From the sequence record MW584166.1: 64,000 nucleotides of DNA; one strand, written 5' to 3'. The stretch is from Mycobacterium phage prophi88-1. A program made the position numbers and the translations under genes. A model generated the notes under the pieces. It searched no databases and was not told the origin of the DNA. It worked only from the letters and a program-made list of their open reading frames with translations. Below, one piece after another: positions 25,313 to 26,460 of the stretch (positions within the stretch are counted from its first letter, which is position 1; each line of letters starts with the position of its first letter).

Positions 25313-25500
25313 GCGGTCGCTACGCCGATCCTTGGACAGTCAACACGCCGGTGAGCGCCAAGGCGGTAATTGGGTCCAACCGGGGGGTAGCGTCCTAAAT
25401 GGCAATTGCTACGTCATGGCCCTCTTCATCGCTGGAGGGGCGGCGCGCTCGCTGAATCTCAGTGAATCGTGTCTTCCGCCCAGTGATGAAGGGAGTGTTC

Positions 25501-25611
25501 ATGTCGCGGCGAAAACAACGAAAAGCCGTAGAAGATTGGATCAGGATTCTGATCTTCTTGCTACGGCTCATCGAGGTTATTGCTGTTGTGACCGGTAAAC
25601 ACTGGTACTAG
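25501..25611 (+). CDS. small basic/hydrophobic membrane peptide (36 aa)
   Basis: GAAGGGAG Shine-Dalgarno 8 nt upstream. MSRRKQRKAVEDWIRILIFLLRLIEVIAVVTGKHWY. Low GC. Followed by a hairpin. Confidence 0.35.
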   Translation: MSRRKQRKAVEDWIRILIFLLRLIEVIAVVTGKHWY

Positions 25612-25645
25612 CCAGGGTTGAGGAACCGACTGCCATCGGTGACTC

Positions 25646-25671
25646 GGGGGCGGGGCTACTAAAGCCCGCCC
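25646..25671 (+). terminator. GC-rich hairpin (GGGCGGGGCT-ACTAA-AGCCCGCCC) downstream of the small ORF
   Basis: Stem-loop read in the sequence. Only a weak T-run follows. Confidence 0.4.
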
Positions 25672-25740
25672 TCTACCTGTCTGTTCAGCGTGCGTCATGC
25701 CGCAAAAGAGCGCTTATGGCGTGACGCGCACTGTAAAGGA

Positions 25741-25817
25741 GGTTACACCACAGGTACACCGTGTCACATGTAAGCGCGGTTACATGTCGCAATCAATACA
25801 TGTAGCGATTGGTACAC
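25741..25817. repeat. Phased ACATGT hexamers (starts at 25766, 25782 and 25798, a 16-bp period) plus GGT(T)ACA(C) repeats
   Basis: Read directly from the sequence within an otherwise non-coding stretch. Confidence 0.5.
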
Positions 25818-25984
25818 GGTTGTGCGCGCTGGGAGCCGTCATCTGGCATCACCCCCGACACCTTGCGATCGGCTGGATTCGTTTGAACCACCTGCTATTC
25901 GGCTCGTGACCGCCTTGCGGTCCGCCAAGCTTGGATTGCTTGTCACTCGTCAGCTCGTCACCGCGTGGGCGTACTTTCCTGGCC

Positions 25985-26239
25985 ATGGCCTCGGAAACCA
26001 TTGACCCCTGCATGGCGTTGTTACCGGATACGGCGTTGGCGTTCGCGCTCGGTGTGCGGGTGGCTAGCCCGCAGTCGGTGTCAAACGTTGGGCAGGTGTC
26101 GACGTTGACCGCCGAGCTGCAGCGCCGCGGTGTGTACGACGACATGCTGGCAGTGCTGGATCCTGAGCTGGCAGCGCGGATCGAGTTGTTGGACAGCGCG
26201 GACCGCGGCCAACGCTGGGCCCGGACGGGGAGGCGATGA
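25985..26239 (+). CDS. hypothetical protein
   Basis: ORF MASETIDP..., weak. Confidence 0.3.
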   Translation: MASETIDPCMALLPDTALAFALGVRVASPQSVSNVGQVSTLTAELQRRGVYDDMLAVLDPELAARIELLDSADRGQRWARTGRR

Positions 26240-26427
26240 TGGAGTTCGCGCGAGGTGGTCCGATCACTGGGTCTGATCCGACACCGAATTTCACGGAGAC
26301 GATGCGATGCTCCGCGAACTGGGGAGGGTATGTGATTCCAGCCGGTGCGGTTTCAGAGGCGGCGGTGCGGCTGATGGCCCGTCTCGATGAAACGGTGACT
26401 CAGATCACCGGCAACGTAACGGTTTAG
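26236..26427 (+). CDS. hypothetical protein
   Basis: ATGA-coupled 63-aa ORF. Confidence 0.3.
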   Translation: MMEFARGGPITGSDPTPNFTETMRCSANWGGYVIPAGAVSEAAVRLMARLDETVTQITGNVTV

Positions 26428-26460
26428 GGTTTCCGAGCTTCCGGGCGGGCCGCCGAAAGC

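Follow-up and report, generated by a model that had tools for sequence, protein, structure and literature searches.

What fills the DNA directly behind the large terminase (TerL) gene of Mycobacterium phage prophi88-1 (MW584166.1), and does it carry a product of its own? The window, i.e. the whole stretch of DNA analysed here, is 64,000 nucleotides (nt) long and represents a Mycobacterium abscessus prophage of cluster MabL (assignment taken from PMC9934374), with about 97% identity to prophiT49-1 (OQ417967). A first-pass annotation, made from the sequence alone, had described positions 25313-26460 as a sparsely coding 1.1-kb insert that splits the terminase and portal genes and contains a small hydrophobic peptide, a GC hairpin and a phased array of ACATGT hexamers. 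Positions 25313-25955 are best read as a cargo cassette behind TerL that was acquired horizontally and does not code for protein. Judged from its sequence, this cassette most likely carries an operator-guarded small RNA (sRNA) unit directed leftward, i.e. encoded on the minus strand, a reading to which a probability of roughly 0.4 is assigned.

The insertion has been identified through comparison with related M. abscessus prophages, a step proposed in the first-pass annotation. Diverged homologues of a 63-aa open reading frame (ORF) located downstream were used to collect the junctions between TerL and the following DUF7423 gene, and four states of this slot have been seen: (i) the 643-bp cassette, in the window and near-identical copies; (ii) a plus-strand gene of 102 aa, in prophiT46-2, prophiT48-1 and L167-L169; (iii) a 352-aa TIR-TM gene on the minus strand, in L170 (M. 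abscessus QXBH01000001.1, 2205-3263; PADLOC TIR-TM, E = 2.7e-38; Pfam TIR_2); (iv) an empty site, in L171-L173. In the empty alleles the TGA of TerL is joined directly to CGTCACCG...TACTTTCCTGGCTATG, the conserved 29-bp leader of DUF7423, and this junction sets the limits of the insert at 25313 and 25955. The GC content over about 25250-26000 is 0.55-0.59 against 0.64-0.70 in the flanks, as had been noticed earlier. The empty-site allele, two alternative cargos at the identical junction and the lower GC content together indicate a horizontally acquired “moron”-like cargo. The moron proposal is thus supported for the insertion itself and not supported for the peptide as its payload, for which neither a homologue nor a family match nor a signal in the GC content of third codon positions (GC3) has been found. 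The TIR-TM allele of L170, a MabL-like prophage, marks the slot as a hot spot for defence genes and other cargo.

The right edge of the cassette, 25906-25955, is a decayed duplicate of the TerL 3' end. Its local alignment to the TerL 3' end scores 23, compared with 13.4 +/- 2.7 for shuffled sequences, and this score is reached by 0.4% of shuffles when the prophiT48-1 end is used and by 1.4% with the window's own end. The insertion therefore either duplicated the end of its target gene or carried its own copy. Further internal copies of the TerL 3' end, suspected in hairpin B (see below) and at 25346-25376, are not significant (p = 0.19). A miniature inverted-repeat transposable element or an element of the insertion sequence type has been rejected, since terminal inverted repeats do not exceed the shuffle level, a target-site duplication is lacking, and the flank consists of a direct repeat, degenerate and about 50 bp long, that stems from the 3' end of TerL. 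The 64-kb window holds no additional copy of the cassette, which has no homology to the other slot cargos; its complementarity to the rest of the prophage is limited to 12-16-mers, at chance level.

The known copies of the cassette are young and nearly uniform. The studied stretch is 99.4% identical to prophiT49-1, against 97.1% for the 13 kb around it, and 25232-26460 matches a locus of CP065279.1 (L041) base for base; this locus lies within the published coordinates of prophiGD43A-6, and the record was assigned to strain GD43A by matching coordinates. The cassette itself corresponds to 3,716,860-3,717,502 of CP065279.1. Eight copies of the cassette were compared, with five single-nucleotide polymorphisms in total, two of which fall at apical loops (25663, the loop-closing pair of hairpin C; 25707, in the loop of hairpin D). 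The exact DUF7423 protein adjoining the cassette has entries in 219 index blocks of M. abscessus assemblies. Apart from near-identical M. abscessus copies, no relative of the cassette was found in phages (near and distant search modes), plasmids, IMG/VR or metagenomes; the metagenomes were searched with the exact hairpin-B sequence, and both IMG/VR and the metagenomes also with degenerate patterns of the array. The remaining matches to these patterns are unrelated tandem repeats, e.g. in L020 (an 8-bp ACATGTGA array) and L021 (a 16-bp repeat). At 5777-5816 of L020 (IMGVR_UViG_3300041935_000006, GC 0.67) there are five ACATGT hexamers at an 8-bp period, formed by ACATGTGA/ACATGTAG units and without homology to the cassette.

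The cassette shows no evidence of coding. The ORFs tested in the gap gave no match in Pfam or PHROG, and PADLOC, applied to the 36-codon peptide ORF only, gave none either; in the Rfam 15 covariance search of the cassette the best E-value was 0.33, far below the gathering score, and the tRNA/tmRNA scan found no tRNA. The NCBI gene calls leave the cassette empty in four genomes. One annotated gene does reach into it: the GenBank start of prophiT49-1 gene 48 (record 28394-28849) is the ATG inside the second ACATGT, equivalent to window position 25784. In the window as well as in L040 and L041 (GD43A-6), a TGA at 25907 stops the extended frame, whereas prophiT49-1 has GGG there; this polymorphism (25907-25909) lies within the decayed TerL duplicate. 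Because of the in-frame TGA, the lack of a GC3 signal across the region and the empty NCBI calls, the extension 25784-25984 is regarded as non-coding, and the start of gene 48 is probably over-extended by 201 nt.

The 36-codon ORF described in the first-pass annotation does exist on the plus strand (25502-25611), where it encodes MSRRKQRKAVEDWIRILIFLLRLIEVIAVVTGKHWY, and a Shine-Dalgarno-like GAAGGGAG (25487-25494) stands 7 nt ahead of its ATG. The GAAGGGAG box is the 3' arm of hairpin A, where it pairs with CCCUCUUC, and the AUG is paired as well in this hairpin of -52.6 kcal/mol. The ORF continues through hairpin B. Its basic N-terminus, RRKQRK, is read from CGG CGA AAA CAA CGA AAA, an A-tract complementary to a U-tract on the minus strand; hairpin B encodes the acidic residues in its 5' arm, which is rich in purines, and the Ile/Leu/Phe run in its pyrimidine-rich 3' arm, the arms pairing codon-in-phase (GAA GAU with AUC UUC). 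The A-tract and the two arms thus yield the basic-then-hydrophobic pattern automatically upon translation, including a hydrophobic stretch of about 19 residues with a mean Kyte-Doolittle value of about 2.1. Searches in 5.8e9 protein clusters and a full HMMER scan of 1.8e9 representatives returned only the peptide itself, Pfam, PHROG and PADLOC contained no family match, and the GC content by codon position (0.32/0.57/0.53) carries no GC3 signal. These features suggest that the ORF is probably a shadow of hairpin B and its A-tract, and a functional peptide is considered unlikely. Also confirmed are the other motifs reported around it: the ATG-TAA, the AAAGGAGG box and the repeats of GGT(T)ACA. 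The AAAGGAGG box (25735-25742), which had been thought to lead into the ATG-TAA, is situated 25 nt from it, a distance too long for a Shine-Dalgarno role; it complements the -10 and discriminator of a promoter-like site on the minus strand, and the ATG-TAA is simply a ACATGTAA palindrome.

The array consists of four 16-bp dyads of the form TGTM-N8-TACA, named O1, O2, O2' and O3 (Table 1). O2, O2' and O3 abut head to tail, O1 stands 37 bp apart as a fourth dyad, and a near-perfect palindrome of 22 bp (25766-25787) has O2 at its core. The ACATGT hexamers at 25766, 25782 and 25798, reported before with their exact 16-bp period, are the ACA/TGT seams between or beside the abutting dyads. The hexamer itself is not enriched in the window (13 occurrences against 11.3 expected), whereas three of them fall within 38 bp; by an analytic estimate, a cluster of this kind would arise anywhere in the 64 kb with a chance of about 3e-4, and with a lower one if equal spacing is required. 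The pattern TGTA-N8-TACA occurs three times in the window, always within the array, compared with 0.09 expected (0/100 shuffles). The array gives no RNA-folding signal (z about 0 on both strands), which indicates a feature of the DNA. The earlier suggestion that the phased palindromes form a site for a multimeric DNA-binding protein is therefore supported as far as the sequence goes: the array is non-random, of the type used by such proteins, and is a candidate site. The segments that are specific to the window with respect to prophiT46-2 and prophiT48-1 encode no recognisable DNA-binding domain. The conserved helix-turn-helix (HTH)/zinc-ribbon protein encoded downstream was rejected as the binder, being common to phages that have no array. 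Both results suggest that the binder may be host-encoded.

Left of the array, four hairpins (A-D on the plus strand; B', C' and D' as read on the minus strand) make up the structured domain 25400-25760, the strongest in the window, while the adjoining coding sequence scores about zero. The entire gap folds with z of -6.2 (plus) and -4.7 (minus), and hairpins A and B are the top two of the 100-nt windows across 64 kb by structure, A ranking second. Hairpin A pairs CCCUCUUCAUCGCUGG with CCAGUGAUGAAGGGAG and thereby sequesters both GAAGGGAG and the AUG (25502). Hairpin B', read on the minus strand, is a stem followed by UUUUCGUUGUUUUCG (25525 down to 25511), an arrangement like that of an intrinsic terminator and found by the scan for hairpins with a U-tract. 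Hairpin C is the GC hairpin of the first-pass annotation, confirmed with an extent of 25646-25673; its U-tail is weak when read on the plus strand and missing on the minus strand, and the terminator scan made no call there. Two other plus-strand windows are strongly structured, 59751-59850 (rough z -8.4) and 18951-19050 (rough z -6.2); refolding of 131 nt with 200 shuffles gave z -3.3 for 59730-59860 and -4.1 for 18930-19060.

A promoter pattern requiring at least 5/6 of TTGACA, a spacer of N16-18 and TANNNT was searched on both strands of the window (128 kb). It matched five times, and one of the matches lies inside the dyad array, on the minus strand. O1 overlaps its -10 and the predicted start near 25733, and O2-O3 are directly upstream of its -35, abutting it, which is the classical layout of operators. 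About 220 nt downstream on the same strand, hairpin B' and then UUUUCGUUGUUUUCG follow, near 25512. The predicted 229-nt minus-strand RNA folds at -99 kcal/mol (z -7.2) into a 5' stem-loop (D'), a centre made of C' and a pair of small hairpins, and the terminator at its end. It would lie in antisense orientation to the strand of the late operon and cover most of the 36-codon ORF. A leftward unit in this slot has a precedent of orientation in the TIR-TM cargo, which is also on the minus strand.

From these elements the following order of events can be proposed. A SigA-type promoter-like site embedded in the four dyads would drive a leftward, structured RNA of about 220 nt, which the intrinsic terminator B' with its U-tract would end near 25512. 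The dyads would be operators for a dimeric regulator, O1 covering the -10 and start, and O2-O2'-O3 lying upstream of the -35. Between TerL and DUF7423 the RNA would be a perfect antisense match to the transcript of the late operon, and its simplest role would be that of a cis antisense regulator or an insulator of read-through; an accessory sRNA role is possible too. The plus-strand peptide, its Shine-Dalgarno box and AAAGGAGG would then be mirror images of the terminator, hairpin A and the promoter.

Several observations weigh against the leftward unit. A generic promoter/terminator scan of the cassette returned nothing: the promoter-like site is below its threshold, and terminator B' was probably missed because its long stem is interrupted. 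The -10 matches TATAAT at only 3/6 positions and is thus weak, and the scan for hairpins with a U-tract has low specificity, with 24 matches in 128 kb. The lack of a regulator for the dyads in the window-specific segments counts here as well, as does the near-identity of all known copies of the cassette, which makes a covariation test impossible. Each of the four hairpins gains stability when folded as plus-strand RNA, where 16 G-U pairs form against six on the minus strand (for hairpin A, seven against two); for hairpin A at least, this bias speaks for an RNA from the plus strand. According to the RNA sequencing (RNA-seq) of the GD43A lysogen (mBio 2021; PMC8092301), the prophages are mostly silent outside the PT-Imm loci, which argues against strong lysogenic expression.

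A plus-strand RNA, whether the mRNA of a type I-like toxin or an element within the late-operon mRNA, is accordingly a serious rival, especially for hairpin A. In the former case the 36-aa membrane peptide would be paired with a convergent minus-strand RNA acting as antitoxin over codons ~4-36 and the 3' untranslated region; hairpin A would keep the mRNA untranslatable, and the dyads would control the antitoxin promoter. This minority reading, in line with the earlier suggestion of a type-I-toxin-like peptide, is an unlikely one, albeit with several features to recommend it: a GAAGGGAG box 7 nt from the start codon with both of them sequestered, a basic N-terminus before a hydrophobic stretch, a promoter-like site and terminator in convergent orientation, a cargo slot occupied elsewhere by the defence-like TIR-TM gene, and the stronger plus-strand folding, which would suit a stable toxin mRNA. 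The bsrG/SR4 and txpA/ratA pairs of Bacillus prophages, and ibs/sib, likewise have a convergent or overlapping layout. Against it, translation of the A-tract and hairpin explains the peptide pattern fully, the peptide has neither a homologue nor a codon-usage signal, the sole upstream -10-like hexamer on the plus strand (TAGCGT at 25388) is poor, and mycobacteria are not known to have a validated type I system. The silence of the GD43A prophages outside the PT-Imm loci (PMC8092301) tells against this pair just as it does against the leftward RNA. A still more doubtful variant joins both strands, an operator-gated antisense sRNA and a structured plus-strand RNA encoding the membrane peptide forming an RNA-based accessory system in the defence slot. 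If instead the plus-strand RNA is a cis-acting element of the late-operon mRNA, hairpins A-D would process, stabilise or terminate the transcript after TerL; TerL would be uncoupled from the head genes, expression would restart at the leaderless-type -10 before DUF7423, and the array would be an operator or roadblock. The better folding of all four hairpins on the plus strand with its excess of G-U pairs, the position of the domain as the strongest structure of the window, the -10-like hexamer kept 7 nt before the DUF7423 ATG in all slot states, and a canonical terminator 5' of the major capsid gene in the same operon speak for such an element, but the cassette is optional, being missing from prophages with an empty site or another cargo, a proper U-tract is absent from every plus-strand hairpin, and the array is 170 bp away from the DUF7423 start, so that this explanation is also thought improbable.

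The cassette could alternatively be an inert scar, i.e. the orphan promoter-operator and terminator of a lost minus-strand cargo gene, drifting neutrally. The turnover of cargo in the slot, the decayed TerL duplicate at the right edge, the absence of coding content and the young, nearly identical copies are what such a remnant would leave. Neutral drift does not easily account for the 220 nt between promoter and terminator, which are exceptionally structured (z -7.2), for hairpin A, which lies outside that unit yet ranks second among the most extreme structures of the 64 kb, or for the array, intact and invariant in 8/8 copies, with the linked DUF7423 allele in 219 index blocks of M. abscessus assemblies; a scar is therefore held to be rather doubtful. 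Least probable is a direct role of the array in packaging (pac/cos), replication, resolution (a res site) or stoperator-like immunity, most of which the first-pass annotation had offered as candidates. The phased palindromes do adjoin TerL and the ParB_N-methylase gene, and the genome records of phages Dori and Mask begin just upstream of TerL, which by the usual convention suggests circularly permuted genomes and headful packaging. A packaging signal is expected to travel with the terminase, however, and prophiT46-2 and prophiT48-1, which share the same backbone and 94% identical DNA over the methylase and TerL genes, have neither the array nor an analogue of it; prophages with an empty site exist too, and a pac/cos function is accordingly disfavoured.

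The remaining functions were rejected one after another. As a replication origin, the array is far inferior to a RepA-like gene about 11 kb away that contains its own array of 12-bp iterons: some 14 tandem 12-bp units (GGGACCCWCCNN-like) are located at 14094-14270 inside this initiator gene, and the segment resembles an origin placed within its own initiator gene, by analogy to the lambda ori in gene O. As a stoperator or immunity operator it does not qualify because its motif is unique to 25732-25816 in the prophage, and the repressor-cro intergenic region has different repeats, of the CCGGATTTCCGGAA type. As a res or inversion site it was dismissed since the serine recombinase is kept in relatives without the array (prophiT46-2, prophiT48-1 and Mask, checked in the TerL-portal region), with 95-97% identity in prophiT46-2 and prophiT48-1 and 84% in Mask and Sejanus. 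The recombinase gene (16681-17259) encodes a protein with 61.5% identity to a resolvase of the TnpR type from Tn3-family transposons, which are carried by P1-like phages and plasmids of enterobacteria.

Table 1. Features of the window between the large terminase and portal genes (dG in kcal/mol; values given for plus and minus strands)
Feature	Position	Strand	Remarks
Large terminase (TerL) gene, 505 aa	23795-25312	+	Pfam Terminase_6N; annotated terminase in prophiT49-1
TerL C-terminal linker, hypervariable	25232-25285	+	DNA homology to all relatives stops at 25231
Functional copy of TerL 3' end, duplicated at right edge of cassette	25263-25311	+	
Inserted cassette, 643 bp	25313-25955	.	GC 0.55-0.59; without a convincing protein gene
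Hairpin A	25410-25506		dG -52.6 (+), -34.1 (-); z -6.3 (+), -2.8 (-)
Hairpin B/B'	25506-25592		dG -40.5 (+), -33.5 (-); z -7.4 (+), -6.2 (-)
Predicted leftward RNA, ~220 nt	25512-25733	-	D' at the 5' end, C' in the central domain, terminator B' at the 3' end; ends inferred
Hairpin C (GC hairpin)	25646-25673		dG -20.5 (+), -17.0 (-); z -2.3 (+)
Hairpin D/D'	25681-25738		dG -29.9 (+), -24.4 (-); z -3.6 (+), -3.8 (-)
Array of four 16-bp dyads, TGTM-N8-TACA	25732-25816	.	O1 25732-25747; O2 25769-25784; O2' 25785-25800; O3 25801-25816
Promoter-like site	25740-25767	-	-35 GTGACA 25767-25762; 16-nt spacer; -10 TAACCT 25745-25740
DUF7423 leader, 29 bp, conserved	25956-25984	+	-10-like TACTTT at 25972-25977, 7 nt ahead of ATG
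DUF7423 gene, 84 aa	25985-26239	+	Pfam PF24198, 1e-23; phrog_982
63-aa ORF	26236-26427	+	Homologues 83-98% in other M. abscessus prophages
HTH + zinc-ribbon “DNA binding protein” gene, 185 aa	26497-27054	+	GTG start; phrog_928; 185-aa gene calls
DUF1360 gene	27113-27538		Precedes portal gene
Portal gene	27566-29467	+	Annotated portal in prophiT49-1

The gene map (Table 1) corrects two further points of the earlier description. Genes are absent from 25313-25984 only, the rest of the supposed 1.1-kb insert being filled by DUF7423 and the 63-aa ORF, whose homologues accompany every slot state and which is therefore unlinked to the cassette and was set aside as a partner regulator of the array. 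The terminase and portal genes, said to be normally adjacent and split here, are never neighbours in this lineage: the order TerL, variable slot, HTH, DUF1360 and portal is kept in prophiT46-2, prophiT48-1, Dori, Mask and prophages of four other mycobacterial species, with a slot of 220 bp to 1.2 kb in these relatives. The hypervariable linker of TerL comprises about 18 codons ahead of a conserved DW(I/M)SRKI(S/G) tail, and the break in homology falls exactly at 25231, also in the comparison with Dori and Mask.

The DUF7423 homologues of prophiT46-2 (g53) and prophiT48-1 (g51) have 86-88% identity and likewise start at MASETID. A -10-like hexamer (TACTTT, TACGTT or TATTTT) is situated exactly 7 nt before this ATG in every slot state (the window, L002, L003, L167, L170 and L171), an arrangement that resembles a promoter of the leaderless-mRNA type. 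The HTH/zinc-ribbon protein has 72% identity with gp5 of both Dori and Mask; a PDB sequence search with this protein and with DUF7423 was uninformative. A 12-bp unit, CGTTTGTGTGGT, is tandemly doubled at 26478-26501 and overlaps the GTG start (26497) of the HTH/zinc-ribbon gene; judged from the prophiT49-1 alignment and the lengths of the called genes, it is present once in prophiT49-1, L042 and L043 and twice in the window and L040. Further along, the gap just 5' of the major capsid gene (32758) contains a canonical intrinsic terminator on the plus strand (32583-32625), composed of CCCGCAGGUC...GACCUGCGGG and then UUUCUCUUUU, which indicates that the late operon has internal termination signals.

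The cassette may be compared with several known systems. Like the phage morons and accessory cargo slots of mosaic mycobacteriophages and prophages, it is a discrete lower-GC insert, present or absent in close relatives, with alternative cargos, including TIR-TM, at the same junction, and it has its own candidate promoter and terminator sites. It differs in lacking a protein gene, its candidate product being an RNA, and in being bracketed by the duplicated 3' end of the upstream gene. The oop RNA of lambda and the sar RNA of P22 are cis-antisense regulatory RNAs of temperate phages. The RNA predicted here would share with them a short structured form, an orientation convergent to a phage operon, an operator-adjacent promoter and an intrinsic terminator; there is, however, no sequence or Rfam relationship, and the target would be intercistronic and internal to the cassette instead of a regulatory gene.

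Type I toxin-antitoxin systems such as bsrG/SR4, txpA/ratA, ibs/sib and fst/RNAII resemble the cassette in the small hydrophobic ORF, the sequestered Shine-Dalgarno box, the candidate antisense RNA in convergent or overlapping position and the prophage location, whereas the cassette ORF has no homology to database proteins, deposited toxins included, and its composition is explained by the terminator on the opposite strand. The abutting palindromic operators OR1-3 of the lambda type serve dimeric helix-turn-helix regulators. Similarly, the array presents 16-bp dyads that keep TGTA/TACA at their outer ends and vary in the centre, in three to four copies that overlap and flank a promoter-like site; its 16-bp head-to-tail abutment is unusual in comparison, and its motif is absent elsewhere in the prophage. 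The half-sites TGTAA/TTACA resemble sites of the LacI/CcpA type and of the NtcA type (TGTA-N8-TACA).

For the annotation of these prophages, the analysis flags the apparently over-extended start of prophiT49-1 gene 48 and a candidate sRNA gene, so far missing from the annotation, whose operator array is clean. Strand-specific RNA-seq exists for a lysogen carrying an identical cassette (GSE161710; PMC8092301). If the unit is transcribed, it would be a compact example of regulation or defence at the RNA level in a mycobacterial prophage; if it is not, the cassette is a well-documented scar of cargo turnover. Should the sRNA and the membrane peptide prove to act together, they would form, to the authors' knowledge, the first type I toxin-antitoxin-like module (of the abortive-infection type) described for Mycobacterium or a mycobacteriophage. 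In the cluster MabL prophages of M. abscessus, the site that follows the terminase is a cargo hot spot, which may hold nothing, a 102-aa gene, TIR-TM or the present cassette, and as such it bears on the ways in which prophages diversify clinical M. abscessus strains and influence their susceptibility to phage therapy.

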